Origin: Myxococcales bacterium LLY-WYZ-16_1
GTDB taxonomy: Bacteria; Myxococcota; Kuafuiibacteriia; Kuafuiibacteriales; Kuafuiibacteriaceae
Assembly: GCA_031800475.1 (NCBI GenBank)
Contig: DAPKRQ010000278.1
Span: 1-58,999 of the forward strand
Reading direction: 5' to 3'
DNA length: 58,999 nucleotides
Part shown: piece after piece, positions 4,852 to 58,999 of the stretch
Position numbering within the stretch: the stretch's first letter is position 1
Layout of the letters: each line of letters starts with the position of its first letter
Notes under the pieces: model-generated
What the model was told of the DNA's origin: nothing
What the model saw: only the letters and a program-made list of their open reading frames with translations
The model's database searches: none
Made by a program: the position numbers and the translations under genes

Positions 4852-6858
4852 ATGAAAACGGGAACTCTGTTCGGATACCTGATCGCGGCGGCCATCGGCT
4901 TCGGCGTCGGGTTTGCCGTCAAAGACAGTCGAGACGGGACCTTGAAGGCGGAGGCGAAGAAGCCTCCGGAAGCGGCCGAGCCGAGCGAGGCCCAGGCGGC
5001 CGCCAAGCCCAAGCCCAAGGCGAAGGCGGCCGGCGCCAAAGACGCGGACGTTTTCAAGGTGCCGGTCGGCGACAGCGTCCAAAAGGGGCCGGACGACGCC
5101 CTGGTGACCATCGTCGCCTTCTCCGATTTTCAGTGCCCCTTTTGCTCCCGGGTGCTGCCCACCCTGACGAAGGTCGAAGAAAAGTACGGCGACGACGTCC
5201 GGATGGTCTTCAAGCACAATCCGCTTCCCTTCCACCGGCAGGCGCCCCTCGCCCACGAATACGCCCTGGCCGCGGCCGAGCAGGGGAAGTTTTGGGAGAT
5301 GCACGACAAGCTCTTCCAAAATCAAAAGGCCCTGCAGCCCGATGACCTCGAGAAGTACGCCGAGGAGGTGGGCCTCGACCTGCAAAAGGTCGAAGCCTAC
5401 CTGGAGTCCGGCAAGGGCAAGAAGGTCATCGCCGAAGACCAAAAGCTCGCCCGGCAGATCGGCGCCACCGGCACGCCGTCGTTTTACGTGAACGGGGTCA
5501 AGATCGCTGGAGCTCAGCCCTATCCGAAGTTCGAACAGATCATCGACGCCCGAATGGCCGTGGCCAAAAAGGCCCTCGAAAAGGGCGTGCGCCGCTCGGG
5601 CCTGTACGCTGCCCTGATCGAGGACGGGCGCACCAGCCCGCCTCCCCGTCCCAAGCGAAAGCCCCGAAAGCAGCCTCCCGCCGTTCGACAAGAGGTGGCT
5701 CTGTCGGACGCCACCCCGACGAAGGGCGCCGACGAGCCGCTGGTCACGATCGTCGAGTTTTCGGACTTTCAGTGCCCGTTCTGCGCCCGGATCAACCCAA
5801 CCATCGACCAGATCCTGAAGACCTATGGCGACGAAGTGCAGGTCCGGTTTCGAAACCTGCCTCTGGGCTTTCACCAGCGCGCCGAGCCGGCGGCCCGGGC
5901 GGCGCTGGCTGCCCACGCCCAGGGCAAGTTCTGGGAGATGCACGACAAGCTCTTCGCGAACCAGCGCGCCCTGCAGGACGACGACCTGAAGAAGTACGCC
6001 GAGGAACTGGGGCTCGACGTGGCGAAGTTCGAAGAGGACATGGCTGCGGAGGCGATCAAAAAGCAGGTGCAGGCCGACATGGCCGCAGCCCGCAAGTATG
6101 GCGCCCGGGGTACGCCCACGTCCTTTGTCAACGGGGTGCCGGTCCGGGGGGCCCAGCCGTTCGCCCGCTTCAAGGGTCGCATCGACTCGGAGATCGAGCT
6201 GGCCGAAAAGCTGATCGAAGAAGGGGTGAAGCGTTCCGAGGTCTACGCCGAGATCCTGAAGCGCGAGGCCGGAAAAGCCCCGGACGGCGGGGAAGCGCCG
6301 CCGCCGGCGGCCAAGCCGCAACCCGAAAAGGAGGAAAAGCCCGTCGACATCGAGCTCGGGAAGGCTCCGCTGCAAGGAGACGAAGACGCTCCAGTCAAGG
6401 TGGTCGTCTTTTCCGACTTCGAGTGTCCCTTTTGCGGTCGCGTCAATCCGAGCATCGACAAGCTCAAGGAGGAGTACGGAGACAAGGTGGCGGTGGCCTT
6501 CAAACACTACCCGCTCCCGTTCCACCAAAACGCTCGCCGGGCGGCGATCGCGAGCTTGGCCGCCCACCGGCAGGGCAAGTTTTGGCAGATGCACGACAAG
6601 CTGTTCGCAAACCAGCGGGCCCTGAGCGAAGACGACATTCGGGGCTACGCCGAAGAACTCGGGCTCGACATGGACGATTTCGAGGCCGACATGGACGACC
6701 CGGAACTCGAGGCCTGGGTCGACGCCGACATGAAAGAGGGTCGGGGCTTTGGCGTCACGGGCACGCCGGCCACGTTCATCAACGGCCGGAAGATCGTGGG
6801 AGCCCAGCCCTATTCCGCCTTCAAAAAGAAGGTGGACGAAGTCCTCTCCGAGTCCTGA
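4852..6858 (+). CDS. membrane-anchored protein with three DsbA/thioredoxin-like domains
   Basis: N-terminal hydrophobic anchor. Three repeats of FSDF(Q/E)CPFC...GKFW(E/Q)MHDKLF...GTP..(Y/F)(V/I)NG..I/V.GAQP. Confidence 0.9.
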
Positions 6859-7097: not shown

Positions 7098-7409
7098 TCA
7101 GTCGCGGGACAGGGGGGCGGGTTCGAAGACCACCCGCCCGTGCGCGTCGAGCTGCTCCAGCAGGTCGGTCTCGCTGGCCGGGGCGGGACACGCGAAGGGC
7201 GCCGGTTCCGGCTCGACCGACTCGATTTCGGCCGTCACCCGCCCCGTCAGCGGAAGCGACGGCGTCCGCGCCGACAGCCCCGCCACGGACTCGGTCGAAG
7301 TGTCTCCCCAACGGGCCAACAGCACGTGTGCGACGAAGAAGATGATCGTCGCCAAAGCGGGGGACACGAACCACACGCCGGGGGCCGGTTCGCTCGGACG
7401 GCGCAGCAT
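7098..7409 (-). CDS. hypothetical single-TM protein
   Basis: ATG 7409, hydrophobic stretch VWFVSPALATIIFFVAHVLLA. No recognised family. Confidence 0.4.
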   Translation of the reverse strand: MLRRPSEPAPGVWFVSPALATIIFFVAHVLLARWGDTSTESVAGLSARTPSLPLTGRVTAEIESVEPEPAPFACPAPASETDLLEQLDAHGRVVFEPAPLSRD

Positions 7410-7588
7410 GTTCGTGTGATTTAAGGCATGGATTTCGGAAGTGTCGAGCCCCGAAGTGGATACCGCGCACAACCGATCGATGGAGCGCACTCCCTGCGGC
7501 CCGGATCTGCCGAATTTTCCCCGAGTGGGCCCATGAATCCGGGTGCGGAGCGGCCCCCACCGTCCGCTCGAGGCCGTTCGGCTCGAGG

Positions 7589-8347
7589 TCATCCGATCCG
7601 GGCCAGACCCAGGAGGGTGCCGGTGGCCGGGCTCGCCAGATGGATCGGTTCGCCGGACGCGGGTCTCCATCCACGACACAAGCCCTCCAGCTCGATGCGG
7701 CCCACTTCTCGGGACTGGACGACCGGCGCGCGCTCGGCCGTGCCTCGGTCCCAGTCCAGTCGACCGAGGATGCGCCGGACCCGGACGTCGGCGCTTCCCG
7801 ACAGCCCATGGGCGAGCAGTGTTTGGCCGGGCGTCAGGGGCTGCGGACCGATCCACTGGACCGACACCGGGTTTGGGCCATCTTTTGCCGGCTCGACCGA
7901 AGCCATCGATACGGATGCGCACCAGTCGGTCACCAGACGGGGCCCGGTGTAGCCGTCGGGATGGAGGCGGTCGGACTCGGGCGCCGGGCGCACGGGAAAG
8001 ACCCAGGTCGGGCCCAAGCCGAAGTTCCGCAGGGTCGCCTGCACCCGGGTTTCGCTCCAGTCGAATTCGGAGCGACGGCTCCGCCGGGGCAGCAAGACCG
8101 CCGTGGGCAGCCCGAGCCACCCCAGAAGCGACAGACCTGCCGGGACGCCGAGCCCGGGACGGGTGACCTGGGCCACCACGACCGCCGCCCGGGCCCGAAA
8201 GACCCCGTCCACCCACGAGGACGTTTCCGGACGACCGCAAGATGGAGCGCCTTGCTGGCCGCATACGGCCGCAGCGCGGAAGGCCCGCGCCACCGCCTCC
8301 CGCACGCTCCGGGTTCCGGGCGAGCCCAACACGACCACGGCGTTCAT
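7589..8347 (-). CDS. degenerate CysN-like protein (sulfate adenylyltransferase subunit 1 C-terminal domain-like)
   Basis: ATGA overlap with the cysH stop. C-terminus (QWIGPQPLTPGQTLL...RRILGRLDW...EVGRIEL...TLLGLARI) resembles CysN domain III. No GTPase motifs. Confidence 0.4.
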   Translation of the reverse strand: MNAVVVLGSPGTRSVREAVARAFRAAAVCGQQGAPSCGRPETSSWVDGVFRARAAVVVAQVTRPGLGVPAGLSLLGWLGLPTAVLLPRRSRRSEFDWSETRVQATLRNFGLGPTWVFPVRPAPESDRLHPDGYTGPRLVTDWCASVSMASVEPAKDGPNPVSVQWIGPQPLTPGQTLLAHGLSGSADVRVRRILGRLDWDRGTAERAPVVQSREVGRIELEGLCRGWRPASGEPIHLASPATGTLLGLARIG

Positions 8348-11452: not shown

Positions 11453-12541
11453 TTACCACGCCGGCTGAAGCCGGCTCGTCTCCGGGAGGGTGTTCTTCTT
11501 GACCGGCAGGAAGTACAGCCGCGCGAATGTGGCCACCGCCTGGGCCTGCAGCCCGAGCACCTTCACCCGGTTCCACAAACCCCCTTTCCGCTTGGCATCG
11601 TCAATCTTGGTGGCGATTCGAACCATGCGGTCCAGATTCGCTTTGAACGCGGGGTTGTCCAAGTCGAGCAAGACCGGAAAGACCTGCTTGCAGATCTCGA
11701 GAGTGATTCGAAAGACCTGCATACCGTATTCGCTCGGATCGATTCCCAAAGCCTCGTGGAAGGCGTGCCGATGGTGATCGCGCACGTACATGGTGGCAAA
11801 GACGGCGAGCTGGAAGAATCGAATCCAGAGCTTGTTGGTGCCCTGGAGAAGCTTCGGATTGGCCCGCATCAACAGCGCGAAGGCCTCACCGTGCCGGAAT
11901 TCGTCGTTGCACCACTCTTGGAACCACTTGAAGATCGGGTGGAAGCGATGCTCCGGGTTCCGCTGCAAGTGCCGGAAGATGGTGATGTAGCGGGCGTATC
12001 CGATTTTCTCGGACAGGTAGGTCGCGTAGAAGATGAACTTCGGGCTGAAGAAGGTGTACTGCTTCGACCGGGTCAAAAAGCCCAGGTCTACGCCCATGTC
12101 GAAGTCCTTCAGACTGTCGTTGATGAACCCCGCATGCCGAGCTTCGTCCCGGCTCATGTACTTGAACAGGGCGCAGATGTCCGGGTTGGTGCCGCGCTTG
12201 CGCATCTCCGCGTAGAGCACGCAGCCCGAAAACTCGGCCGTCAGGGAACTGACCAAAAAGTCTAGGAACTCCTTCTTGAGATCCTCATCCAATTTGGACG
12301 TGTCCAGATCCCACTCTTCGGTTCGCTTGAAGTGACCCTTATTTGGGTCGCTGGCCATTTCGGCGATCAGCTCGTCCCATTCGGCCCGCACCGGACTGAC
12401 GTCCATGCGGTCCAGTTCGTCATAATTGGTCGTGTAGAACCGCGGACTCAACACCGTGGTCTCTTGCGCCTTTTGGGTGCTGGCGTTGACGTTCTTTTCG
12501 GTGCGATGTCGGGGCTTCATGTCGAGTTCGGCGATGGTCAT
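11453..12541 (-). CDS. acsF: aerobic Mg-protoporphyrin IX monomethyl ester cyclase
   Basis: [48 protein letters not shown] di-iron motifs. Confidence 0.97.
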
Positions 12542-12840
12542 AGCGTTCTCCGTTCCGTGAAGCTCACGTCGAGCAAATCAAGGCACTCCAGGTTGCCGAC
12601 GAGTTTGGTCCACTGGCGCTCGAGCCAGTTGGCTCGAGTCACCGTGGCCGTCCGACGCTCCACCACCCGCTCTCCGAAGGGCGGGTGGATCGGCCGGCCG
12701 TGGATCAGAACCTGATCGCCAGGTTCCATCTGAATGCCCCCGTCCAAATCGACGTGGGCATGAAGGCTTTCGAAGGTATGCGAGACGTCGACGGTACAGC
12801 CGGTCTCGAAGACCCGTCGGCGCAGCAGATTCCAGTTCAC
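12538..12840 (-). CDS. conserved small PGC protein between puhC and acsF
   Basis: [29 protein letters not shown]...FGE...[15 protein letters not shown] pattern. Translationally coupled on both sides. Confidence 0.8.
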
Positions 12841-31825: not shown

Positions 31826-32335
31826 ATGGAGAACAACGAGTCCAAAGACGTGACCCGGCGCCGCGCATTGCAGGTGATCGGCGTGGGCGTCCTGGTTCCG
31901 GCTGGTGCGCTCATCGGCTGCACCCAGGAAAGCGGGACGAAGGAGGCCAAGTCGGGGCACTCCGATTCGGACCCCGAGAAGTCGGCGGCCTCCAAGCCCA
32001 AGGAGGACGAAAAGAAGAAGCCCGAAGCTGCCGCGGACGGTGAAAAGACCTCAGGCGGCGAAATGGCCAAAAGCGGCGAGGCCAAAGGCGGCGAGGCCAA
32101 AGGCGAGGGCGGCGAGGTGGTCTGCGACACCAGCGGCATCGACGCCCAGTCCAAGCAGATGCGGAAGACCCTTCAGTACGTGTCGAAGAGCCCGAAAGAG
32201 GGCAAGCAGTGCAACAACTGCATGCAGTGGATCAAGCCGAAGGCCGGCGAGAAGTGCGGGGGATGCAAGCTGTTCAGCGGCCCGGTGAACCCGAACGGCT
32301 ACTGCCTCAGCTACGCGCCGATGAAGAAGGCGTGA
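31826..32335 (+). CDS. high-potential iron-sulfur protein (HiPIP), Tat-exported lipoprotein
   Basis: TRRRAL Tat motif, LIGC lipobox, charged linker, then LQYVSKS..GKQCNNC...GGCKLF.GPVNPNGYC. RBS GAGGAG. Confidence 0.9.
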   Translation: MENNESKDVTRRRALQVIGVGVLVPAGALIGCTQESGTKEAKSGHSDSDPEKSAASKPKEDEKKKPEAAADGEKTSGGEMAKSGEAKGGEAKGEGGEVVCDTSGIDAQSKQMRKTLQYVSKSPKEGKQCNNCMQWIKPKAGEKCGGCKLFSGPVNPNGYCLSYAPMKKA

Positions 32336-46535: not shown

Positions 46536-47360
46536 GTGGCCTTGCTCAGTTTTGAACGGAAGTACCGGGTGCGTGGAGGGACCCTCATTGGCGGCGACCT
46601 TTTCGACTTCTGGATCGGTCCCTTTTACGTAGGGTTCTTCGGCCTCACCACGGCCTTCTTTTCGGTGCTCGGGACGCTCCTGATCATATGGGGCGCAGCA
46701 CGCGGTCCGACCTGGAACGTGTGGCGCATCAACATCGAGCCGCCCCCGCTCGAGTACGGGCTCGGGATGGCACCTCTGGACCAGGGAGGGTTGTGGCAGC
46801 TGATCACGATCTGCGCCATTGGCGCCTTTGTTTCCTGGGTGCTCAGGCAGGCAGAGATCAGCAGAAAGCTCGGAATGGGCTATCACATTCCCTTTGCCTA
46901 CGCCGTTGCCGTGTTCGCCTACGTGACCTTGGTGGTCATTCGTCCGGTTTTGTTGGGGGCGTGGGGCCACGGTTTTCCGTACGGCATCTTTAGCCACCTC
47001 GACTGGGTTTCGAACGTGGGCTATCAATACCTGCACTTTCATTACAATCCCGCCCACATGATTGCTGTGACCTTCTTCTTCACGACCACGCTCGCATTGG
47101 CGATGCACGGTTCTCTCATTCTCTCGGCCGTGAATGTGCCGAAAGGCGAGACGGTGAAGGGAGCCGAGTATGAGGACGGGTTCTTCCGAGACTTCATCGG
47201 CTACTCGATCGGTGCCGTCGGCATTCACCGGCTGGGACTGTTCCTCGCATTGAGCGCGGGCGTGTGGAGCGCAATCTGCATCGTGATCAGCGGGCCGTTC
47301 TGGACCCGGGGTTGGCCCGAGTGGTGGAACTGGTGGCTCGAGCTCGGGATCTGGAACTGA
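46536..47360 (+). CDS. pufL: reaction centre L subunit
   Basis: [53 protein letters not shown]. Confidence 0.99.
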
Positions 47361-47378
47361 CGCGAAGGGATTCGAACG

Positions 47379-48350
47379 ATGGAATATCAAAACATCTTCA
47401 CCCAGGTGCAGACCAAAGGGCCGATGGAAAAGGGCCCACCCATCGACGAGGACTTGTGGCCTCGGTCGACGTGGATGCGGTTCAGTCATCTGATCGGGCG
47501 ATTCGGTAACGCCCAAGTCGGTCCGATCTATCTCGGTTGGTTCGGAATCACGTCCGCCGTTTGCTTTTTGGTGTCGTTCTGCATCATCGGATTCAACATG
47601 TGGGCTTCGGTCCAGTGGAACCCGATCGAATTCATACGCCAGCTTCCGTGGCTGGCTCTGGAGCCGCCTCCGCCGTCGATGGGGCTGTCATGGCCTCCGC
47701 TGAACCAGGGAGGGTGGTTTCTCATCGCTGGCGTGTTTTTGACCGCTTCGGTCATTTTGTGGTGGTTCCGCTGCTACTATCGAGCTCGGGCCCTCGGGAT
47801 GGGAACCCACCTGGCATGGGCCTTCGCTTCGGCGATCTGGCTGTTCTTGGTGCTTGGTTTCATTCGACCGGTGGCCATGGGGAGCTGGGGCGAGGCGGTG
47901 CCGTACGGCATCTTCCCGCACTTGGATTGGACCGCGGCCTTTTCCATCCGGTACGGCAACCTGTTTTACAATCCGTTCCATGCCCTATCGATCGTGTTCC
48001 TGTATGGGTCGACGCTGTTGTTCGCCATGCACGGTGCCACGGTCTTGGCGGTCAGCCATCTGGGCGGTGAACGGGAGATTGGGCAGATCGTCGACCCGGG
48101 TACCGCAACGGAGCGCAGCGCTTTGTTCTGGCGCTGGACCATGGGCTTCAACGCGACCTTCGAGTCGATCCACCGCTGGGCTTGGTGGTTCGCCGTGTTG
48201 ACCACCCTGACGGGCGGCATCGGCATCCTTTTGACCGGCACGGTGGTGGACAACTGGTACTTGTGGGCGGTGAAGCACGGGGTCGCTCCCGACTACCCGC
48301 AGGTCTATCCGGTGGTGCCGGATCCTGCGATGACCGAGGTGCCGCAATGA
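47379..48350 (+). CDS. pufM: reaction centre M subunit
   Basis: [52 protein letters not shown]. Confidence 0.99.
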
Positions 48351-49981
48351 CTCCTTCATTCTTCATCAAACTGTTCACCGTCGTCTTCGTGGTGCTGGGC
48401 GTCGTGTTGACCATCGACACCTGGACCAGCGTGGAAGCCGTGCAACGCGGCTTCTCGGGGGTTGGAATGGAGGTGGTCTACAAGGACCACATGCTGCAGG
48501 AAGACGCGGACCAGGTGGACGGGGTACCTCCGCCGCTGCCGATGGCTTCGTCCGAAGGGCTCAAGGCGGGTGAGGCCTACCAGAACGTGCAGGTGTTGGG
48601 AGACCTGTCGACCGGGCAGTTCACTCGGCTCATGACCCACATCACCCAATGGGTGTCGCCGGAGCAAGGCTGCAACTACTGCCACTACGCCGAGAATCTG
48701 GCGTCGGACGGCAAGTACACGAAGGTCGTGTCGCGCCGAATGATCCAGATGACGCAGCACCTGAACGAGAACTGGAGCAGTCACCTGCAAAACGCGGGCG
48801 TGAACTGCTACACCTGCCACCGCGGGATGAACGTGCCGCAGTACATCTGGTTCGAAGAGCCGGAACACCCGATGAAGGATCGGGCGCTGGGCAACCCTGG
48901 TGGACAGAACATGGCCTCGTACCGGGTGGGGTCGGCGTCGCTCCCCAGCAACGTGTTCGAGACCTTCTTGCAGGAAGACTACAACATTCGAGTCGTCGGT
49001 CCGACGGCCCTGCCGACCGGCAACAACCGGTCGATCAAGCAGACCGAATGGACCTACGGTCTCATGATGCACATGTCGAACTCGCTCGGCGTCAACTGCA
49101 CATACTGCCACAACAGCAGGTCGGTTGCGGAGTGGGGGCAGAGCCCGCCGGCTCGAGCCACCGCGTGGTACGGCATCCGCATGGTCCGTGACGTAAACAA
49201 CAACTATTTGGATCCACTGAAGCCCGTGTACCCAGAATACCGGTTGGGCCCCACCGGAGACGCGCCGAAGGCCAACTGCACGACCTGTCACCAGGGCGTG
49301 TACAAGCCGCTGCTCGGTATGAACATGGTGGAGGACTACCCGTCGCTGAAGAAGTACGTGCCCTACGAGCCGAGCGAAGAGGCCGAAGAGGCCGAAGAGG
49401 CAGCGGACGAGGCGGATGAGGCGGATTCGGAAGAGGAAGGGGCTGACGAAGAAGCGGACGCAGAGTCCGAGGAAGACGAAGCGGACGACGAAGAGGTAGA
49501 AACCTCGAAGGCGGATGCGGGCGAGGCCGACGCGGCGCAGGCAGCGACCGCTGAGGCTGCAGCGTCCGGCGAACGGGCCCCGAAGCCGTCCCCCGAGGCG
49601 GAAGAGGCCGAGGCGGAACAGGCCGAGGCGGAAGAGGGGCAGGCGGCAGCCGCGTCGAAGGCAACCGGCGACGCGGACGCGTCCGAGACGGCGACCGAAG
49701 CCGAATCCAAAGCGACGGCTGGGGTCGAGTCGACCGAGTCGGCCACCGAAGCCGGCGCCGAGGCGGCGGCGAAGCCGGCAGAGCCGACCGAGTCGGCCAC
49801 CGAAGCCAAGGCGGAGGGGGCCGAGACGACGGAGTCGGCCACCGAGGCCCAGGCGGACGGGGAGGCGGCCGCTGAAGAGGCGGCTGCTGCCCCAGCGAAA
49901 AAGCCCGCCGAGGAGACGGCCACCCAGGCCGCTTCGCCCGACACCGAGACCGAGACCGGCACGGAAGCCTCGGACGGCTGA
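48347..49981 (+). CDS. pufC: tetraheme RC cytochrome c subunit with a long acidic C-terminal tail
   Basis: [19 protein letters not shown], four CxxCH (CNYCH, CYTCH, CTYCH, CTTCH). ATGA overlap with pufM. Confidence 0.97.
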
Positions 49982-50295: not shown

Positions 50296-50356
50296 CCCGC
50301 CGCGCTTGGGACTGGGGGGTGATGACCGAACCCCACCCTGGAGGAGGCCGTTTTCC

Positions 50357-51004
50357 GTGACCCACATGTTTCCCCGATGGACCAACCATCTTCCGACCGC
50401 GGTGGCGGTCGGCGTACCGCTGCTGGGTGTCGCCGTGGTCCTCGGCGTCTACTACTTCTTTTCTCCCTACTACACCGACGTCGGCTACGAGCCGACGCAA
50501 CCGGTCCCGTACAGTCACGCCCTGCACGCAGGTGAGATGGGTATGGACTGCCGGTACTGCCACAACACGGTGGAGTACGCTGCCCACGCCGCGGTTCCCC
50601 CGACATCCACCTGCCTGAACTGTCACAAGTACGTGAAGGCCAACAGCGAGAAGCTCTCCCTCGTTCGACAGTCGGGCGAGACCGGCGAGCCGATTCCGTG
50701 GGTCAAGATCCACCAGCTGCCGGACTATGCGTACTTCAACCATAGTGCGCACGTCGGGGCCGGTGTCGGCTGCGTCTCCTGCCACGGTCGCGTCGACCAG
50801 ATGGAGGAGGTCTGGCTGCACGAACCCCTCAGCATGGGTTGGTGTCTGGACTGTCACCGAAATCCGGAACCGCACCTGCGACCGGTTTCCGAAGTGACGA
50901 ACATGGCCTATGACCCCGTGGCTGCCGGCTATGACCCGAGCGAAGACCCGAACCGGACCCGCGAGGTGAATCCCCCGGTCCACTGCGCAGGATGCCACCG
51001 ATGA
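50357..51004 (+). CDS. actA: alternative complex III pentaheme cytochrome c subunit
   Basis: N-terminal TM, QPVPYSHALHAG, five CxxCH, LPDYAYFNHSAH, PLSMGWCLDCH. Confidence 0.92.
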   Translation: MTHMFPRWTNHLPTAVAVGVPLLGVAVVLGVYYFFSPYYTDVGYEPTQPVPYSHALHAGEMGMDCRYCHNTVEYAAHAAVPPTSTCLNCHKYVKANSEKLSLVRQSGETGEPIPWVKIHQLPDYAYFNHSAHVGAGVGCVSCHGRVDQMEEVWLHEPLSMGWCLDCHRNPEPHLRPVSEVTNMAYDPVAAGYDPSEDPNRTREVNPPVHCAGCHR

Positions 51005-53892
51005 CTCGAGAAACGATTTCCGCTGCCGGGCCCCACAATCCCGGCCGACGCAACTTTCTGTCCGCCGTGGGCGCAACCGTTGCGAGCCTCCAGACCGCGG
51101 CTTGCATTCGGAAGCCCTACGAAAAGATCCTTCCCTACGCCGAGCGTCCAGAAGACCTGGTGCCCGGCGAAGCCCGCCACTACGCCACCGTGTGGAACGT
51201 GGGCGGCGCCGTGCAGGGCCTGCTGGTGCGCTCCACCGACGGCCGGCCCACCAAGGTCGACGGCAACCCGAACCACCCCATGACCGGGGGGTCGACGATT
51301 TGGGCTCAGGCCTCGGTCCTGTCCTTGTACGATCCCGAGCGCTCGAAGGAGCCGGTTCGCGAGGGGGAGGGCGTCAGTCCCGATGAGGCCGTCGGATTCT
51401 TGAAGAAGTTGCCCGACGAGATCGGCGACGGTTCGGGCCTCGCGGTCGTGGTGCCGGAGCTTCCGTCGCCCACCGCCGATCGACTCTGGGAAGACATTCG
51501 AGCGAAGTATCCAAAAGCCGAGCTGTACCGTTTCGACGGTGCCGGCACCGACCATGCCCGAGCGGGTGCTGCCATGGTGGGTATCGAAGGCGCGGCCTGG
51601 ACGACCGATGGCACGCCGACGGTGATCGCTGCCTTCGATGCCGATCCGATCGGGACCGAAGGCGACACCACTGCATTCACCAAGGCGTTCGCGGCGGGTC
51701 GAGACCCGAACAGAAAGCCGGCTGAGGCAAACCGCCTGTACGTGGTCGAGCCGCACGTCTCGATCACTGGCTCCAACGCCGACCACCGCATGGCGGTGAA
51801 AGGTTCCGAGGTTGGCGATTTCCTGGCCGCCCTGGCGCACCACCTCAAGAAGGGCGGGCTGAACGTCCCGACCCTGGACGCGCCGAAAGACAAGCTCGAC
51901 TCGAAATTCGTCAAGGCGTTGGCGAAGGATCTGCTGTCGCGAAAGCGTGGAAGCACGATCGTGATGGTCGGCGAGCGGCAGCCCGCCCACGTTCATGCGC
52001 TCGGGTTCGTGTTGAACGAAGCGCTCGGAAACTTCGGCAAGACCCTTCGCTTCACCAAGCAGGGACCGACCGAGGTGGGCGCACTTTCGGACCTGGTTCG
52101 GCGCATGAACGATGGATCGGTAAAGCAGCTGGTCGTCATGGGCAGCAACCCGGTCTACGAAGCTCCGGCGGATCTGAACTTCGGCGAGTTGTTCCAGAAG
52201 GTCCCTCTGACGATTCACCTGGGCTTGTATCGGGATGAAACGGGCCGCCTCGCCACTTGGCACATTCCGCAGAGCCACTATCTGGAGTCCTGGGGTGACC
52301 TGCGGGCCCGGGAGGGCACGACGGCCATCCAGCAGCCGCTGGTCGCGCCCCTATACCCGTCGTTGTCCCCGATCGAATTCATGGCTCGCCTGACCGGAGC
52401 CGAATCGAAGGGCTACGATCTGGTTCGTGCCACCCACCAGGGGGCTATCTCCGGTGGTTTCGACAAGCGCTGGCAGCGGTGGCTTCACGACGGCGTCGTC
52501 GACGTGGGCCAGGCCCCGTCGTTCGTCCCGAGCGTGAAGACCGATGGGTTGGCCGCAGCATACAAGTTCCGGGCCGAACGAGCGCAAGGGCTGGAGCTCG
52601 CGTTCGTGCGGGACAACGCGGTTCTCGACGGTCGCTTTGGCAACAGCCCGTGGCTGCAGGAGCTGCCCGATCCGATCACCAAGATCGCGTGGGACAACGC
52701 GGCTGTGGTCTCACCGAACACGGCCGAGAAGATCGGTGTCCCGAACAACCTCGAGCAGTCGTCGGTGCGCGATACCGTCATGGTGGACGTGTCGGTGGGC
52801 GGCGAGACCGTGCGCCTGCCGGTCTGGGTGCAGCCCGGCACTGCCGAAGACGTGGTCGTGCTGTCGCTGGGGTACGGGCGCAAGCACGGCGGCAAGTTCG
52901 CGAAGTCGGGCTTCGACGTGAACTCCCTCCGAACCGCCGAATCGCCGTACATTCGGAGCGGTGCGAAGGTGACGCCCACGCGAAAGGGCTACGCGGTGGC
53001 GTGCATGCAGCCCGAAGCGAGCATGCACGACCGGCCGATCGTCCGGGACGCCACCCGTGGCGACTTCACCGATGAACCGAACTTCGTCGAGAAGTTCGAG
53101 GTCATGGACGAGGACCACGTTGCTAGCCTCCTTTGGGACGAACCAGAGTACACGGCCGAGCACCAGTGGGCATTGACCATCGACCTGAACTCCTGCGTCG
53201 GCTGTGGTTCGTGCACCGTCGCCTGCCAGGCCGAAAACAACATTCCGTGGGTCGGCAAGGAAGACGCGCTCAAGGGTCGCGAGATGCACTGGATTCGGAT
53301 CGATCGCTATTTCGAGCCGAAGCACTCGGACCAGGTGGAAGTGCGGTACCAGCCCATGGCCTGCGTGCAGTGCGAGACCGCTCCCTGCGAGAACGTGTGT
53401 CCCGTCGGTGCGACGGTCCACGGACCCGAAGGCCTGAACAACATGGCGTACAACCGCTGCATCGGCACCCGGTACTGCAGCAACAACTGCCCGTACAAGG
53501 TGCGGCGCTTCAACTTCTTCCATTACACCGTGCGGAACGACGCGGACTACGGCATGGGCATCGCAATGCAGCGCAACCCGGACGTGACGGTCCGCTATCG
53601 AGGCGTGATGGAGAAGTGCACGTACTGCGTGCAGCGCATCAACAAGGCACGGATCCACGCCAAGGTGAACGGCGACGGCATCATCCCGGATGGCACGGTG
53701 AAGACCGCCTGCCAGGAGGCTTGCCCGGCCGACTGCATCACGTTCGGGAACATCCGGGACCCGGACAGCAAGGTGTCCCACACCCGAGAAGATCCTCGAA
53801 ATTATGCCGTGCTCTCCGAGCTGAACCTTCGGCCCCGGACCACCTACCTGGCGAAGTTGACCAACCCGAACCCGGATTTGGCAGAAGGGTGA
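51001..53892 (+). CDS. actB: ACIII subunit B (molybdopterin-oxidoreductase-like domain plus Fe-S domain)
   Basis: RRNFL Tat motif and [33 protein letters not shown], four Cys clusters ([33 protein letters not shown]). Confidence 0.93.
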
Positions 53893-53899
53893 ACTGACG

Positions 53900-55327
53900 A
53901 TGGATATGCGAGTTTCGCGAGACCCCGTGGACCGGCGGCCGTTGTTGGTCAACCCGCCCACGGACTACAACGGCGTCACGGAGGCGGTGGCCGCGCCGAT
54001 CGAATGGAAGACCCCCATGGGGTGGTGGATCTTCTTTTTGGTCTCGGCCGTCTTCGCGGCGATGTACGCCGGGAGCACCGCTTACCTGATCTGGGAAGGA
54101 ACCGGCATCTGGGGCCTGAACGTCCCGGTGGCCTGGGGCTGGGCCATCGTCAACTTCGTGTTCTGGGTCGGTATCGGTCACGCCGGGACGCTGATCTCGG
54201 CGGTGTTGTTCCTGTTCCGTCAAAAGTGGCGAACCAGCATCAACCGGTTCTCCGAAGCCATGACCATCTTCGCGGTGGTCTGTGCGTTGTCGTTCCCGAC
54301 GATCCACGTGGGCCGCATCTGGCTGCTGTACTGGGTGTTCCCCGTTCCGAACCAGATGGGCGCGTGGCCTCAGTTCCGAAGCCCGCTGCTGTGGGACGTG
54401 TTCGCGGTGAGCATCTACGGAACGGTGTCGGTCCTGTTTTGGTACACGGGATTGGTGCCCGACCTCGCCACCATGCGGGACCGGGTGAAGTCGAAGGTCG
54501 CCAAGTTCGCCTACGGAATCTTCGCGCTGGGCTGGACGGGTTCCACCCGCCACTGGCGACACTACGAAACCGCCTACATGCTCCTGGCCGGGCTCGCGAC
54601 CCCGCTGGTTCTGTCCGTGCACTCGGTCGTTTCGTTCGACTTTGCGGTGTCGCAGCTGCCCGGCTGGCACACCACGATCTTTCCCCCGTACTTCGTCGCC
54701 GGCGCGATCTTCTCCGGATTCGGCATGGTGCTCACGCTGATGTTGGTGTCTCGGGTGATATTCAAGCTCGAGCACATCGTTACGATGCACCACCTGGACA
54801 ACATGGCGAAGGTGGTCCTCTTGACCGGCATGATCGTGGGCTACGCCTACGGCATGGAATTCTTCATCGCGTGGTACGGCGGCAACGAATACGAGATGTT
54901 CGCCTTCATCAACCGGGCCTTCGGACCCTATTGGTGGGCGTACTGGAGCATGGTGAGCTGTAACGTCCTGATTCCGCAGGTCCTGTGGTTCAAGACGATC
55001 CGGCACAACGTGGCCGCGCTCTTCGTCCTCTCGATCTTCGTGAACATCGGAATGTGGTTCGAGCGCTACGTCATCGTGATCACCTTGAGCCGAGACTTCC
55101 TGCCGTCGAGCTGGGACATGTTCTATCCGACGGTGTGGGACTGGGCGGCGCTGCTCGGAAGCTTCGGCCTGTTTTTCACCCTGTTCTCGCTGTTCGTGCG
55201 GTTTCTGCCCATGGTCGCCATGGCTGAGGTGAAGAGCGTGATGCCCGAGTCCGACCCGCATCACGAGCCCGATGAAACGGAAGCCGCCAAACAACCGGCC
55301 ACCGCCACCGCAGGAGGTGCATCGTGA
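53900..55327 (+). CDS. actC: ACIII quinol-binding NrfD-family membrane subunit
   Basis: [65 protein letters not shown]. Confidence 0.94.
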
Positions 55328-55863
55328 GTTCTTCGAACAAAGTGTTTGCCGCCATCGGCGAGTTCTCGACGGTGAAGGAGATCTGGCACGCCTGCGAAAA
55401 GGTGCGAGATTCGGAGTTTACCAAGTGGGACGCCCACACACCCTTCCCCGTTCACGGGCTCGAGCACGCCATGGGGATGGGTCGGTCTCGCCTGCCGTTC
55501 TTCGTGTTCGCCATGGGCATCACGGGGGCGGCGGGAGCCTTCGCGCTGCAGTCGTGGATCTCGACCACCGCGTACCCGATCATCATCGCCGCCAAACCGT
55601 ACTTTTCGTGGCAGGCCTTCATCCCGGTGACGTTCGAGGTGATGGTGCTGTTCTCCGCGGGCAGCGCGGTGCTGGGCATGCTGTTTTTGAACCGCTTGCC
55701 GCGCTGGTGGAATCCGCTGCTCGAGTCGGAGACCTTCAAGCAGGTCACCAACAACAAGTTCATCATTTCGATCGAGGCCAGTGACCCGAAGTTCGACCCG
55801 GACGAGACGCAGGAGTTCCTGCGCTCCCTGGGAGCGAGCAAGGTCGAACTGGTCGAGGAGTAA
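55324..55863 (+). CDS. actD: ACIII subunit D (DUF3341)
   Basis: [11 protein letters not shown], two TMs, AFIPVTFE. Confidence 0.9.
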
Positions 55864-55868
55864 GACCG

Positions 55869-56513
55869 ATGCGAGCGTACACCTTCACCGTCGTCTCGCT
55901 GGGGGCAGTCGCCGCGGTCGCCTGCGACCCGTACGGGAAGTTCGAGCGGCCCCCGATTCACCTGCAGCAAAACATGGACTTTCAGCGCTACTTCGAGGCG
56001 CAGGAAGAAAACCCGTTCTACTCGGACAAGCGGGCCATGCGCCCAGAGGTCGAGGGCACGGTGGCGGTCGGGCAACTGCGTGACGACCCCCATCTGTACC
56101 TGGGCAAGGAGAGCGAGGACGCCGAAGACTGGGTCCGCACCCTGCCGGCCCAGGGACCGGACGGGAAGCCGATCGAGGTCGACGAAGCGTTTTTGGCCCG
56201 AGGCAAGGAGCGATTCGGGATCTATTGCGCCGTATGTCACAGTGCCAGCGGCATCGAGCATGGCACTGCAGTGCAGCGCGGCATGCTGCCGCCGCCCAAG
56301 CTCAATGACGAGCGGTTGCTCACCATGCCGGTCGGCTATTTCTACGACGTGATCACCAACGGCGTTCGCAACATGCCGCCCTACGCTTCCCAGATCCCAG
56401 TGAAGGATCGCTGGGCCATCGCGGCGTACGTCCGGGTGCTGCAGCGGCGCTATCAGGCCCCGTTGGCGCAGGTGCCGGACGAGGTGGCTTCCGAGAAGGG
56501 ATGGAAGAACTGA
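55869..56513 (+). CDS. actE: ACIII monoheme cytochrome c lipoprotein
   Basis: AVAC lipobox, MDFQ, GTVAVG, RGKERF.IYCAVCH, MPPY..QIP..DRWAIAAYVR.LQ. Confidence 0.9.
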   Translation: MRAYTFTVVSLGAVAAVACDPYGKFERPPIHLQQNMDFQRYFEAQEENPFYSDKRAMRPEVEGTVAVGQLRDDPHLYLGKESEDAEDWVRTLPAQGPDGKPIEVDEAFLARGKERFGIYCAVCHSASGIEHGTAVQRGMLPPPKLNDERLLTMPVGYFYDVITNGVRNMPPYASQIPVKDRWAIAAYVRVLQRRYQAPLAQVPDEVASEKGWKN

Positions 56514-56514
56514 C

Positions 56515-57726
56515 ATGGGTCGCATGAAGTCGATACCGGAGGACACGAACCTCCGACTGTCCGGGGTGTGGACGTCGTTTCCGAAAATCCTCGGAGGCAT
56601 CGGTCTCGCCAGCCTGGTCCTGGCGTTCATCATCGGGGCCGTGGGCGGTGAGCACGGCATCGAGCGCTTTCACTTCTCGTACCTGACGGCCTACATGTAC
56701 GGGCTCAGCTTCGCCCTCGGGGGGTTGTTCTTCGTGATGGTGCAGTTCCTCGCGAGGGCGGGTTGGAGTGTGGTCGTCCGCCGGGTTGCGGAGAACGTCA
56801 TGGGGACGTTGCCGCTGTTCGCGGTGCTGTTCATTCCGGTCGCCGTCGGGCTGCACCATACCCATCACCACTGGTGGGGCGTCGAGCCGGGTCACGACCA
56901 TCTGGTGGACCACAAGGCCCCGTACCTGAACCAGCCGTTCTTCTTCATCCGCGTGATCTTCTACTTTGCCGTGTGGATCTTCTTGGCTCTGACCTTCTGG
57001 CGGAGCTCCACCCGACAGGACGAGACGGGCGACCACGAGCTCACGCACAAGATGCAGTGGTGGTCGGCTCCCGGGATGCTGCTGTTCGCGTTGACGGTGA
57101 CCTTCGCGGCCATCGACTGGATGAAGTCGATGGAACCTCACTGGTTTTCGACGATGTGGGGCGTCTATTTCTTCGCCGGTTGCGTGATCGCCATCTTCTC
57201 GATGCTCTCGACCCTGATCATTGCGCTGCAGCGCACGGGTCACTTGCAGAAGGTCATCAATGCCGAGCACTTCCACGACCTCGGAAAACTATCGTTCGGG
57301 TTCGTGGTGTTCTGGAGCTACATCGCGTTCTCGCAGTACTTCCTGATCTGGTACGCGAACATTCCGGAAGAAACGCTGTGGTTCGAGCATCGATACCACC
57401 ACGGTTGGGAAACGGTGGGGGCCTTGCTCATCGTGGGGCACTTCTTCATTCCGTTCTTTTTCCTGCTCCCGCGGGGCATCAAACGGAATCCGGCCACCCT
57501 CATCATCGGTGCGGCATGGCTACTGTTCATTCACTATGTGGACATTTACTACATCGTCATGCCGGTGTTCAGTAAAGGTCCGCAGCCGGGCATTCTGGAT
57601 CTATTGTGTCTCGTAGGGGTGATGGGGCTGTTCTTGGCCACGTTCTCGGCACTGGCGAGTCGGTCCGAGCTGGTGCCGGTCAAGGACCCGCGACTCCCCG
57701 AGTCGTTGGCGTTCCACAACGTCTGA
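56515..57726 (+). CDS. actF: ACIII membrane subunit F
   Basis: AGWSVVVRR, YLNQPFF.IR, DWMKSMEPHWFST, HDLGK, FSQYFLIWYANIPEE. Confidence 0.92.
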   Translation: MGRMKSIPEDTNLRLSGVWTSFPKILGGIGLASLVLAFIIGAVGGEHGIERFHFSYLTAYMYGLSFALGGLFFVMVQFLARAGWSVVVRRVAENVMGTLPLFAVLFIPVAVGLHHTHHHWWGVEPGHDHLVDHKAPYLNQPFFFIRVIFYFAVWIFLALTFWRSSTRQDETGDHELTHKMQWWSAPGMLLFALTVTFAAIDWMKSMEPHWFSTMWGVYFFAGCVIAIFSMLSTLIIALQRTGHLQKVINAEHFHDLGKLSFGFVVFWSYIAFSQYFLIWYANIPEETLWFEHRYHHGWETVGALLIVGHFFIPFFFLLPRGIKRNPATLIIGAAWLLFIHYVDIYYIVMPVFSKGPQPGILDLLCLVGVMGLFLATFSALASRSELVPVKDPRLPESLAFHNV

Positions 57727-57736
57727 AAGAAGCATC

Positions 57737-58306
57737 ATGCGTATCTCGAAGCGAAACATTTGGTCTGCTGCCGGCACCGTGGTGTTCGTGGCCGGTTGCC
57801 ATGGGCCGCTGCCGGTCAACCACGATGAACACCCGAAGTGGGTCGAGTTCCGGGACGAGCAGGAGGAGCTTCTGAGCTCCTACGCCCAGGTCGATGCAGA
57901 AGAGGGTGTGTACCAGATTCCCGTGGATCGGGCCCTCGCCATGGTGGCCGACGACCCGAGCCTGCTGGAGCCGGTGGTAGAGCCGGTGAAGGCCAAGCCC
58001 ATCGAAGAGATGACCCTGGTGGAGCGTGGTGAGTACCACTTCAACAACACCTACGTGTGCGCGTCCTGCCACGCCTTCGATGGATCCCGGAAGGTGGGCC
58101 CGCCGCTGAACGACCGGTGGGGCGAAAAAGCGCTCCTCGAAGGGGGCGAAGAGGTGGTCTTCGACGACGAATACTTCCGGGAGTCCGTGTGGTACTCCCG
58201 AAAAAAGATCGCCCGGGGCTATCCGGCCGCCATGCCCGTGTTCGAAGGCCAGATGACCGAAGAGGACTACGAGGCCATCAAGGCCTACGTCAAAACCTAC
58301 CAGTGA
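57737..58306 (+). CDS. ActG-like / monoheme cytochrome c fusion lipoprotein
   Basis: VAGC lipobox, LLSSYAQVD..EGVYQIPVDRAL (ActG-like), then CASCH..DGSRKVGP...DDEYFRESV...GY.AAMP (cytochrome c). Confidence 0.75.
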   Translation: MRISKRNIWSAAGTVVFVAGCHGPLPVNHDEHPKWVEFRDEQEELLSSYAQVDAEEGVYQIPVDRALAMVADDPSLLEPVVEPVKAKPIEEMTLVERGEYHFNNTYVCASCHAFDGSRKVGPPLNDRWGEKALLEGGEEVVFDDEYFRESVWYSRKKIARGYPAAMPVFEGQMTEEDYEAIKAYVKTYQ

Positions 58307-58411: not shown

Positions 58412-58852
58412 CTACCAACTGCCCGTGTTTTGCATGCTCGCCCACGGCTCCTGGGCCGGCTGAGCTTCGCCTTTTTGAAGAAGCTCGATGGATATGCCGT
58501 CCGGCGAGCGAACGAAGGCCATCCGGCCATCCCGCGGCGGCCGCAGGATCGTCACGCCGCCGTCCTGCAGGCGCTGGCAAGCAGCGTAGATGTCTTCGAC
58601 CCGATACGCCAGATGGCCAAAGTTCCGGCCCCCGGTGTAGGTTTCCGGATCCCAGTTGTAGGTGAGTTCGAGCATGGGAGACTTGTGCTCCCGGGCTTGA
58701 GCCTCGTCTCCCGGTGCCGCCAAGAACACCAATGTGAAGCGCCCCTTCTCCGACTCCTTTCGAGAGATTTCGATCAAACCCAGCTTGTTGCAGTAGAAAT
58801 CGAGGGAAGCATCCAGATCGCTGACGCGGACCATGGTGTGGAGGTATTCCAT
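58412..58852 (-). CDS. gloA: lactoylglutathione lyase (glyoxalase I, VOC family)
   Basis: [46 protein letters not shown]. Confidence 0.92.
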
Positions 58853-58999
58853 GGGACCAGGGTGCCCTGGACCTCGGCCCGGGTCCAAGTCGGTTCCTCC
58901 CAATCACCGCCGCTGTCCGGCCCAAAATCCGGTCGGGCCGACCGGTGGACCGGGGGGCGGGTTTCGGTCGATGCCCGAATGCATCGCCGCCTCGGGGGC

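Follow-up and report, generated by a model that had tools for sequence, protein, structure and literature searches.

A predicted lipoprotein with an ActG-like module and a caa3-type cytochrome c domain at the end of a puf-linked act operon in Myxococcota

The stretch of DNA analysed here (58,999 nucleotides of contig DAPKRQ010000278.1 from Myxococcales bacterium LLY-WYZ-16_1; the window) carries an operon for alternative complex III (ACIII) directly behind the reaction-centre genes, and the last gene of this operon encodes a monoheme cytochrome c joined to a stretch that resembles the subunit ActG. This raises the question of what the protein consists of, how it arose and which role it would play in electron transfer from ACIII. 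ActG is the least understood subunit of the complex and is described as cofactor-free, non-essential and missing from many act clusters (PMC5928083). In the same account it was detected in Rhodothermus marinus ACIII by peptide mass fingerprinting (PMC5928083). It is a physical ACIII subunit, represented as chain G in PDB entries 8k9e, 8k9f, 8x2j and 9ilt. The genes around the fusion gene are as follows.

31826..32335, + strand: HiPIP, candidate downstream carrier, with a Tat-like RRR signal, lipobox L-I-G-C and a long K/E-rich tether (PF01355, translation)
46623..49981, + strand: pufL, pufM and pufC, immediately 5' of the act operon (Pfam and ORFs)
50306..57726, + strand: actABCDEF operon (ORFs, Pfam, order conserved in relatives)
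50306..51004, + strand: ActA (ORF; cytochrome c family in Pfam)
50992..53892, + strand: ActB (named by order and orthologous operons)
53900..55327, + strand: ActC (ORF; NrfD in Pfam)
55324..55863, + strand: ActD (ORF; PF11821, E 5e-63)
55869..56513, + strand: ActE (ORF; cytochrome c family in Pfam)
56515..57726, + strand: ActF (named by order and orthologous operons)
57737..58306, + strand: whole fusion gene, encoding a 189-aa lipoprotein with an ActG-like module and a monoheme cytochrome c (ORF, translation)
58412..58903, - strand: glyoxalase gene, gloA-like and convergent, marking the end of the operon (PF00903)

PF00124 matches at 46623-47354 and 47526-48284 correspond to pufL and pufM, and pufC was recognised from its ORF. 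The fusion gene starts 10 nt past the stop codon of actF, as judged from the ORF calls (actF ORF 56515..57726). An earlier reading of the sequence alone had named a convergent gloA as the next gene, which was borne out by a PF00903 match with an E-value of 3e-21, and had noted that no oxidase genes follow the operon. As the contig stops at 58999, the window by itself does not show the latter. Behind the fusion gene of six related loci, no match to Sco or CoxA was obtained in up to 10 kb of downstream DNA. A terminator and promoter scan 3' of the gene gave nothing exceeding shuffled sequence, and a search of sequencing runs for the source DNA returned no RNA run and one DNA-type run with a word share of 0.21.

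Within the fusion protein (P0001) the following parts were distinguished.

57737..57799, + strand: signal peptide with lipobox V-A-G-C (residues 18-21; Cys21), read from the sequence
57827..57982, + strand: ActG-like module, residues 31-82 (LLSSYAQVD..GVYQIPVDRALAMVADDPSLLEPVVE) (hhalign, AF2)
57983..58012, + strand: short linker, residues 83-92 (alignments, AF2)
58013..58303, + strand: class I cytochrome c domain of the caa3 subunit-II type, residues 93-189 (Pfam, PDB sequence and fold matches)
58058..58072, + strand: haem-binding C-A-S-C-H, residues 108-112 (alignment)
58232..58237, + strand: Met166-Pro167, likely the sixth haem ligand motif (alignment; role assigned from class I cytochromes c)

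The N-terminus (MRISKRNIW-SAAGTVVF-VAGC) fits the lipobox rule [LVI][ASTVI][GAS]C after a positive n-region and an h-region, and Cys21 is retained in at least 90% of the 24 aligned family members. The lipobox proposed earlier thus stands, and P0001 is, by this pattern, a predicted bacterial lipoprotein. The single N-terminal transmembrane helix typical of ActG is replaced by the lipoprotein signal: the best 19-residue hydropathy on the N-terminal side of the motif was 1.14 in P0001 versus more than 2.2 in most TM-anchored fusions. The lack of a TM helix, in which the lipoprotein differs from stand-alone ActG and most fusions, is an observation that counts against docking of the protein on ACIII. 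An NCBIfam match to 'PA0061/PA0062 lipoprotein' was dismissed, being below the cut-off (E 0.004) and confined to the signal-peptide region.

To no family in Pfam or NCBIfam could the module behind the signal peptide be assigned. Its identity was approached through stand-alone proteins encoded directly behind actF. By BLASTP, P0001 matched such a post-actF protein of its own genome (P0027) with an E-value of 3e-5, and in hhalign the profile of the focal N-terminal part aligned with a profile built from 17 Myxococcota post-actF proteins over 40 columns (98% probability, E 3e-13). The stand-alone profile in turn retrieved PDB chain 8k9e_G, the protein named ActG of Chloroflexus, with an E-value of 1e-5, the runner-up having 0.93. 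With the focal N-terminal profile alone ActG also ranked first in the PDB, yet with an E-value of just 0.49. P0001 shares with ActG of Chloroflexus aurantiacus (8k9e chain G) and R. marinus the place directly after actF, which is also kept in six of seven related loci (the exception being the genome G078), and the periplasmic motif L..SYG.....G..hIP...A at an equal relative position. It differs from them in the lipoprotein signal in place of the TM helix and in the appended cytochrome c domain. Tyr59, Pro62 and Ala66 are invariant in the 24 family members, in which the module is conserved as strongly as the haem domain. The AF2 model, built from 57 sequences after an earlier 24-sequence model of poor quality (pLDDT 62.5) had been dropped, predicts a compact fold of a helix, a hairpin and two helices with pLDDT 96-97. 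These comparisons support the assignment of the N-terminal part as ActG-like, as the sequence-only reading had it. The short linker that was also part of that reading measures about 10 residues (83-92) in the alignments, and the block of residues 81-90 has the lowest pLDDT within the mature protein (83). A complex prediction for residues 22-92 with ActB residues 60-966, a partner chosen as a guess, gave no answer (score 0.00), and nothing is concluded from it.

For the C-terminal part, matches to PF13442 (E 9e-10) and PF00034 (E 7e-7) were obtained. Cys108, Cys111 and His112 are invariant both in the 24 family members and in the 57 aligned sequences; Met166 and Pro167 show no variation among the family members and occur in at least 90% of the sequences of the wider alignment. 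With the CxxCH motif, a distal methionine and a class I fold, the domain belongs to the class I cytochromes c. The best PDB sequence match was 1w2l, the cytochrome c domain of caa3 subunit II from R. marinus (E 3e-14 with a single sequence, 1.4e-19 with a profile), with which the model superimposed in Foldseek at E 1.9e-11, a TM-score of 0.94 (normalised to the target), an rmsd of 1.3 A and 35% identity. Fold, sequence class and the motifs VGP, D..Y..ES and GY...MP are common to both, whereas the haem domain of P0001 is not joined to the CuA/TM part of subunit II. Assignment to the caa3 subunit-II cytochrome c class, foreseen from the motifs of the CASCH domain, is thereby supported. Foldseek with the whole model returned cytochromes c alone, and ActG was absent from the results, probably an effect of the haem domain outweighing the rest of the protein in the search. 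P0001 was also considered as an oxidase subunit II (CoxB/CtaC) and rejected: it has neither a TM hairpin nor a CuA cupredoxin domain, no CuA motif (C.E.CG..H..M) and no COX2 Pfam match were found in it, and the real CoxB is encoded on contig C88 of the same genome.

How widespread is this combination of modules? Searching candidates for P0001 homologues gave 25 at E <= 1e-3 among 154. Among the best 150 matches of a search in 1.84 billion proteins, 57 of the 147 classed representatives were ActG-cytochrome c fusions, and 53 of these 57 were recognised by the stand-alone-ActG profile as well. A large share of ActG-like proteins thus bears a caa3-type cytochrome c domain, and does so at a conserved distance: in fusions with both motifs found, the IPV motif and CxxCH are a median of 49 and mostly 42-50 residues apart (47 in P0001). 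Members with a named source belong to Chloroflexota, Nitrospira sp. and Ca. Promineifilaceae and carry only the database name 'cytochrome c'; neither Nitrospira nor Promineifilaceae is known to be phototrophic. In the Myxococcota genomes G022 and G021 the fusion gene has actF on one side and an intact sco-coxB(cyt c)-coxA set on the other, and no pufLM was found in G021 at E <= 1e-10 (genome 96% complete). The fusion family is large, mostly TM-anchored like the stand-alone ActG proteins, and occurs in ordinary respiratory act-sco-caa3 operons. P0001 shares with these TM-anchored proteins (G022, G021, Chloroflexota, Nitrospira, Promineifilaceae) the two modules, their order and the motif-to-haem spacing; these proteins are held by a TM anchor and their genes precede sco and caa3 genes, whereas the focal subfamily is lipoprotein, puf-linked and without oxidase genes behind. 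ActG motifs also lay within open frames of 540-740 aa; these frames were considered as ActF-ActG fusions and discarded as read-through artefacts of high-G+C DNA. No paper describing an ActG-cytochrome c fusion was found in a literature search that covered ACIII reviews and structures in part, and a prior description may exist.

The sequence-only reading had derived the gene from a local event, namely a deletion that took out sco together with the TM/CuA portion of coxB and thereby fused actG to the CoxB cytochrome c tail, followed by loss of the oxidase genes. Two observations speak for this attractive account: the haem domain falls into the caa3 subunit-II class, and the ancestral-looking order actG-sco-coxB is present in the same genome, on contig C88, where a second, respiratory ACIII is followed by plain ActG, Sco, CoxB with its cytochrome c tail and CoxA. 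The arrangement from which the account started is thus real, and it has also been described for the Cr operon of Chloroflexus (PMC3150298). In addition, the ActG-fused haem domain of G021 is sister to the CoxB haem domain of its own genome (98/77, not starred), so that transfer of a domain from CoxB to ActG does seem to occur. Nevertheless, the fusions in G022 and G021 lie beside intact sco-coxB-coxA genes, so no deletion made them, and fusions are scattered over many distant lineages. In the tree, the focal haem domain grouped with other ActG-fused and solo domains, apart from the four Myxococcota CoxB domains, all of which fell in the other half, contrary to the relationship with CoxB C-termini that had been expected. 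Forcing the focal and Myxococcota CoxB domains together cost 66.6 lnL and was rejected by the AU test (p 0.0104; the tested group was named after the first tree had been seen). The focal domain is, moreover, just 37% identical to the CoxB tail of its own genome. Taken together, a deletion origin in the focal lineage is largely refuted and we regard it as highly improbable; the gene was recruited from a fusion family of older date.

The lipoprotein subfamily itself has a narrow distribution. Among 401 Myxococcota genomes, nine, all of the same family, gave strong full-length matches to the N-terminal module. Of these carriers eight possess pufLM, and the ninth genome is 75% complete. Restriction of the fusion to genomes with reaction-centre genes, which the earlier reading had put up for testing, nearly applies to the lipoprotein subfamily, while the architecture as such is common in non-phototrophs, which that reading had named as a refuting condition. 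Conversely, 12 of the 20 pufLM-bearing genomes among the 401 are without the subfamily, two of them from the carriers' own family; phototrophs of the phylum can thus do without it, a point against the function favoured below. Four of seven related loci retain the order pufM-pufC-actABCDEF-fusion, and two more, on short contigs, show actC/D-E-F followed by the fusion; these loci are from Myxococcota only, were collected with two peptide patterns and say nothing about absence elsewhere. In G078, the one case behind puhE, the gene follows PUCC-puhA-bPH-x-acsF-DUF3623 inside the photosynthesis cluster, separated from the act operon, while the sole ACIII of this genome still adjoins puf. This detachment also counts against docking on ACIII. 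The HiPIP gene lies in the same cluster as puf, act and the fusion. HiPIP homologues were found in 10 of 20 genomes of the family, including nine of the ten with pufLM, and occur on the puf contig in five relatives, directly after actF in G078. The presence of a puf-linked and a respiratory ACIII set in one genome parallels the Cp and Cr operons described for Chloroflexus (PMC3150298).

With regard to function, we consider P0001 to be a lipid-anchored ActG variant with a caa3-type cytochrome c that would serve as an extra ACIII exit haem feeding HiPIP or PufC, with a probability of roughly 0.55. Within a single family of phototrophic Myxococcota, one sub-lineage probably swapped the TM helix for a lipoprotein signal, and there the fusion is the last gene of a reaction-centre-linked 'photosynthetic' operon, pufLMC-actABCDEF-actG::cytc. 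The ActG module would dock on the periplasmic face of ACIII like ActG in Chloroflexus and keep a seventh c haem near the ActA/ActE haem wire. This resident exit haem could pass menaquinol-derived electrons to the carrier of the cyclic chain, either the tethered HiPIP or the tetrahaem subunit PufC directly. Delivery of electrons to the reaction centre or HiPIP in place of O2, as the sequence-only reading had it, is plausible. A precedent is c551 of Roseiflexus castenholzii (8gth), a class I cytochrome with one haem that connects a photosynthetic ACIII to a type-II reaction centre and is described as taking electrons from ACIII and reducing the reaction centre (PMC10873879). It was a weak fold match to the P0001 model (Foldseek rank 18, E 2e-3) and is soluble and encoded by a separate gene, whereas P0001 carries its haem domain behind an ACIII subunit module and has a predicted lipid anchor.

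The lipid anchor in place of a TM helix would also suit a mobile carrier that moves laterally in the membrane and links ACIII with the reaction centre or with oxidases, its ActG module being vestigial or a mere spacer. Rhodobacter cytochrome cy, likewise of class I and tethered to the membrane, with a place in photosynthesis as well as respiration, gave weak sequence matches (6xkw_Y, E 0.01 with a single sequence, 2.3e-6 with a profile), and the position of the gene apart from act in G078 points in the same direction. Cytochrome cy has a TM anchor and a long flexible linker and serves bc1, as a carrier between bc1, the reaction centre and cbb3; to our knowledge it has no ActG module and does not serve ACIII. 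P0001 shares with it an anchor and a cytochrome c domain, but its tethers comprise only about 10 residues on each side of the folded ActG module, unlike the long linkers of the cy type. A spacer would hardly be expected to be conserved like the haem domain, with Tyr59, Pro62 and Ala66 invariant, or to be predicted as a compact fold (pLDDT 96-97), and the motif-to-haem spacing conserved over the wider fusion family argues for a fixed geometry and against a loose tether. A diffusing carrier is less probable than a docked subunit, although it deserves consideration.

Alternatively, in darkness the extra haem could serve as the outlet of ACIII to a terminal oxidase, presumably also the task of the TM-anchored fusions in act-sco-caa3 operons, with linkage to puf reflecting mere co-regulation of a second ACIII. 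Most family members are found in a respiratory context, and three haem-copper oxidase subunits I are encoded in the genome. A paralogue of the haem domain is carried by a COX4_pro subunit-IV-like oxidase protein, which hints at traffic towards an oxidase, too. With a bc1-type cytochrome b also encoded, the genome offers other routes and acceptors; this and the haem-domain paralogue weigh against the exit-haem reading given above. On the other hand, the subfamily tracks pufLM and lies within the puh cluster in G078, the six relatives with up to 10 kb of downstream DNA are without oxidase genes there, and a separate respiratory ACIII-caa3 operon is kept in the genome. We therefore judge a respiratory role to be rather improbable, and an exit haem of ACIII working towards HiPIP or PufC to be the better account of P0001.

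ActG and the caa3-type cytochrome c domain are known kinds of protein; what is special here is their lipoprotein version at the end of a puf-linked act operon. In a structure study of Chloroflexus ACIII by Xin and colleagues from 2024, ActG is said to have been called stabilising. The haem domain at a conserved distance suggests a testable function for ActG, namely the positioning of an additional exit haem, which, if true, would alter models of electron transfer from ACIII to its acceptors. The main text of the paper describing phototrophic Myxococcota makes no mention of complex III or cytochromes c, although its supplements may list electron-transport genes (PMC10576062). The conserved cluster pufLMC-actABCDEF-actG::cytc is thus a pointer to what has been missing from their cyclic chain, the side that oxidises quinol and supplies the donor. 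More tentatively, and with the odds against it, ActG might be a docking adaptor that plugs an interchangeable exit haem onto ACIII in many bacteria. In phototrophic Myxococcota its lipoprotein version would complete a self-contained puf-act superoperon for a cyclic photosynthetic chain based on ACIII, leading from the seventh haem of ACIII via the tethered HiPIP to PufC of a purple-bacterial-type reaction centre, and the same cassette would later have been copied onto oxidase subunit IV, wiring both ends of a branched chain.

The last gene of the act operon in the window, which lies downstream of the photosynthesis genes, encodes a lipoprotein joining an ActG-like module to a cytochrome c domain. 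The relevant features are:

31826..32335, + strand: HiPIP (PF01355), inside the photosynthesis gene cluster (PGC), 25 kb upstream of the focal gene
46623-47354 and 47526-48284: pufL and pufM (PF00124 matches), upstream of the focal gene
57737..58306, + strand: focal ORF, an open frame of 189 codons

Upstream of the focal gene, pufL and pufM are followed by pufC and by six genes arranged as in an alternative complex III (ACIII) operon, and the focal gene starts 10 nt behind the stop of the ORF at 56515..57726. Pfam searches assigned ActD (PF11821, E 5e-63), an NrfD-type ActC, a multihaem ActA and a monohaem ActE; ActB and ActF were named from gene order and orthologous operons. Downstream, a glyoxalase gene (PF00903, E 3e-21) is found on the opposite strand, and the contig ends at 58999. 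PufC (48347..49981, + strand) carries a C-terminal extension of about 200 residues of low complexity, rich in E, A, D, T and S, and tblastn matches of relatives to PufC end at about residues 334-379.

The focal protein begins with a signal peptide (residues 1-21) ending in the lipobox V-A-G-C, the cysteine of which is conserved in at least 90% of the 24 aligned family members. An ActG-like stretch (residues ~31-82) and a short linker (83-92) precede the cytochrome c domain (93-189; PF13442 E 9e-10, PF00034 E 7e-7), in which C108, C111, H112, M166 and P167 are invariant across the family. Overall, the ORF, lipobox and two-part architecture described in the sequence-only reading were confirmed. 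An AlphaFold2 model, calculated from an alignment of 57 fusion proteins, reached a mean pLDDT of 90.8, with the N module predicted as a helix, a hairpin and two helices (pLDDT 96-97).

No Pfam or NCBIfam model matches the focal N module. P0027, the product of the gene following actF on contig C88 of the same genome, matched the chain deposited in the PDB as ActG, 8k9e_G (E 0.0025), and focal residues 34-66 matched P0027 at E 3e-5. A profile of the focal N module (A2, 24 sequences) was aligned by hhalign to a profile of 17 stand-alone post-actF proteins of Myxococcota genomes (A5) over 40 columns (98% probability, E 3e-13). When searched against the PDB, A5 retrieved ActG at E 1e-5, the next match being at 0.93, and A2 alone ranked ActG top at a non-significant E of 0.49. 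Since A2 joins A5 and A5 finds ActG, the profile comparisons support well the proposed homology of the N module to ActG by way of the intermediate A5.

Among solved structures, the C domain is best matched by that of the cytochrome c domain from Rhodothermus caa3 subunit II (1w2l), as found by sequence (E 3e-14), by profile (1.4e-19) and by fold (Foldseek E 1.9e-11, target-normalised TM 0.94, rmsd 1.3 A, 35% identity); the second-best Foldseek match was seven orders of magnitude weaker. The domain is therefore of the CoxB-type class, as had been proposed. The CoxB tail of the genome itself shares only 37% identity with the focal haem domain, and the cytochrome c copy of a paralogue on contig C207 shares 67%.

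The same combination of modules is abundant in databases, annotated there as 'cytochrome c' only. A profile of 24 full-length family members, searched against 1.84 billion representative proteins, gave 4404 matches at E <= 1e-3. Among the best 150 of these, 147 of 148 new representatives could be classed by local HMMs and a CuA motif, their haem domains being of sufficient length. An ActG-like module preceded the haem domain in 57 of the 147, so that the fusion is not unique as first supposed; the remainder were CuA-bearing CoxB proteins, mostly dihaem (32), multi-cytochrome proteins (27), short solo domains (21), other architectures (9) and one COX4_pro fusion. An independent HMM built from stand-alone ActG proteins detected 53 of the 57 fusions. 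In most of them the N-terminal helix is strongly hydrophobic, and some (P0034, P0041 and P0050) carry two haem domains. The IPV motif and CxxCH are a median of 49 residues apart, compared with 47 in the focal protein. Source names, found for few fusions, include Chloroflexota, Nitrospira sp. and Candidatus Promineifilaceae. In some metagenomic proteins, namely P0058 (784 aa) and, from its cluster, P0179 (822 aa) and P0181 (802 aa), both modules are joined to a membrane protein resembling cytochrome bd subunit I (PF01654). The arrangement is reminiscent of bd-like oxidases that have been reported from Nitrospirales, where they lie downstream of ACIII (PMC12342949). The ActG module and the cytochrome c domain are of known kinds; the lipoprotein, puf-linked subfamily is new. 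No description of an ActG-cytochrome c fusion was found in the literature searched, key subscription papers lying outside its scope.

The link of the lipoprotein subfamily to photosynthesis genes was analyzed in 401 Myxococcota genomes. The N-module profile gave some match in 182 of them, mostly to stand-alone ActG; long 'open frames' at ActG matches were rejected as high-G+C artefacts. Full-length matches at E <= 1e-16 were obtained in nine genomes only, all of the window's own family. Eight of these nine carriers contain pufLM, the ninth (G108) being a 75% complete genome in 1480 contigs. Altogether, pufLM was detected in 20 genomes (ten of the window's family, nine of family f9 and one of f15), 12 of which lack the subfamily. 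Two of these 12, G093 and G103, belong to the window's family, and the sole ActD of each lies away from puf, in G093 within an act-sco-coxB-coxA operon. The order pufM-pufC-actABCDEF-fusion is conserved in four of seven related loci, and two short contigs carry act genes and then the fusion. Sco and CoxA gave no match within the flanks of any of these loci, and act genes were not found after pufC in the stretches examined of the f9 phototrophs and G022. When 185,579 species genomes were scanned by pattern, a method that detects close relatives only, the subfamily was found in seven Myxococcota-type MAGs only. The proposed link to photosynthesis was borne out, and the lipoprotein subfamily is almost restricted to pufLM-bearing genomes; the fusion architecture as such is not, since it occurs in G021, a 96% complete genome in which pufLM was not found. 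The main text of a paper describing phototrophic Myxococcota mentions neither complex III nor cytochromes c (PMC10576062).

In G078 (L044, contig C2, 962000-981900) the act operon beside puf ends with actF, and the fusion gene is found 23 kb further on, moved from the act operon to a position behind PUCC, puhA (PRCH), a bPH protein, an unassigned ORF, an AcsF-like rubrerythrin and puhE/DUF3623. A HiPIP homologue (C2:971466-971738, - strand) follows actF there, on the strand opposite to the act operon.

Two further loci of the window's genome (G000) are relevant:

Contig C88, 10000-22848 (L002): respiratory ACIII operon, actA-F, ActG (P0027), Sco, CoxB and CoxA, then the contig end
Contig C207, about 11987..12682, + strand (L004, 1114..1809): paralogue P0028, COX4_pro (PF03626) and a focal-type cytochrome c domain

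P0027 is a TM-anchored ActG with a long acidic tail, and the CoxB of this operon has a cytochrome c tail. With this second act operon the genome has two ACIII complexes, like Chloroflexus, which keeps Cp and Cr operons (PMC3150298). Because a separate respiratory ACIII-caa3 operon is kept, as in Chloroflexus, the puf-linked copy is probably the photosynthetic one. In P0028 the cytochrome c copy is fused to an oxidase subunit-IV-like TM domain, the sole COX4_pro match in the genome, and does not adjoin cox genes; in congeners the cox operon contains a plain subunit IV. The same fusion is found in P0025 and P0032.

Physically, ActG is part of ACIII: it was detected by mass fingerprinting in R. 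marinus (PMC5928083) and is chain G in PDB 8k9e. In the focal protein the conserved ActG module is kept as a compact fold, which lies a few residues from the lipid anchor and about ten from the haem domain, with a spacing that is maintained throughout the fusion family. Read most simply, the module would dock on ACIII and hold a seventh c haem close to the ActA/ActE wire, where it would act as a resident exit site. For ALTERNATIVES, the focal protein could also be a mobile cy-like carrier, or it could feed a terminal oxidase; the genome contains a bc1-type cytochrome b (contig C196) and three oxidase subunits I, those beyond the C88 CoxA being on C102 and C303. For the docked, resident haem, the favoured path would lead from menaquinol via ACIII to the haem tethered by ActG, then to HiPIP and/or PufC and on to P+. 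HiPIP is placed in this path because it is encoded in the same cluster and homologues occur in ten of 20 family genomes, including nine of the ten with pufLM, often on the puf contig. Given its twin-arginine-type (RRR) signal, lipobox L-I-G-C and K/E/A-rich tether of ~90 residues before the iron-sulfur domain, the window HiPIP looks like a lipid-anchored, long-tethered protein. A precedent is known from Roseiflexus, in which a monohaem cytochrome c serves as ACIII acceptor and reaction centre donor (PMC10873879).

According to the sequence-only reading, the gene arose when sco and the CuA part of coxB were deleted. This is contradicted by the operons of G022 and G021, in which actABCDEF is followed by a TM-anchored 207-aa ActG-cytochrome c protein, sco, a coxB with a cytochrome c tail of its own, and coxA, so that the fusion exists beside intact sco and subunit II. 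The haem-domain trees (FastTree, 245 domains; a careful IQ-TREE, 70 domains) point the same way, although the alignment is short (98 columns in the latter) and many deep forks are without resolution. In both trees, 23 focal-family domains, three COX4_pro-fused domains and the protein P0031 form a starred clade (100/99), in which a G078-type sequence and P0031 branch first (97/86). The haem domain of P0028 is nested inside this clade, the COX4_pro fusions standing beside 22 act-linked sequences (98/93) which themselves form one clade (99/96). Next to the starred clade come domains that are ActG-fused or solo (unstarred, 88/84 and 86/91), and the four Myxococcota CoxB domains are all placed in the opposite half of the tree. 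Forcing the focal clade together with these four, a group chosen after the first tree, cost 66.6 log-likelihood units (AU p 0.0104). A single observation runs counter to this picture: in G021 the ActG-fused haem domain and that of the neighbouring CoxB (L048, contig C94, about 7159-7635 and 5342-6253, - strand) are sisters (98/77), which suggests that the CoxB tail was duplicated locally onto ActG and that the architecture has been assembled repeatedly and independently. Transfer of CoxB haem domains to ActG probably does take place, by duplication rather than deletion, but probably not recently in the line leading to the focal proteins.
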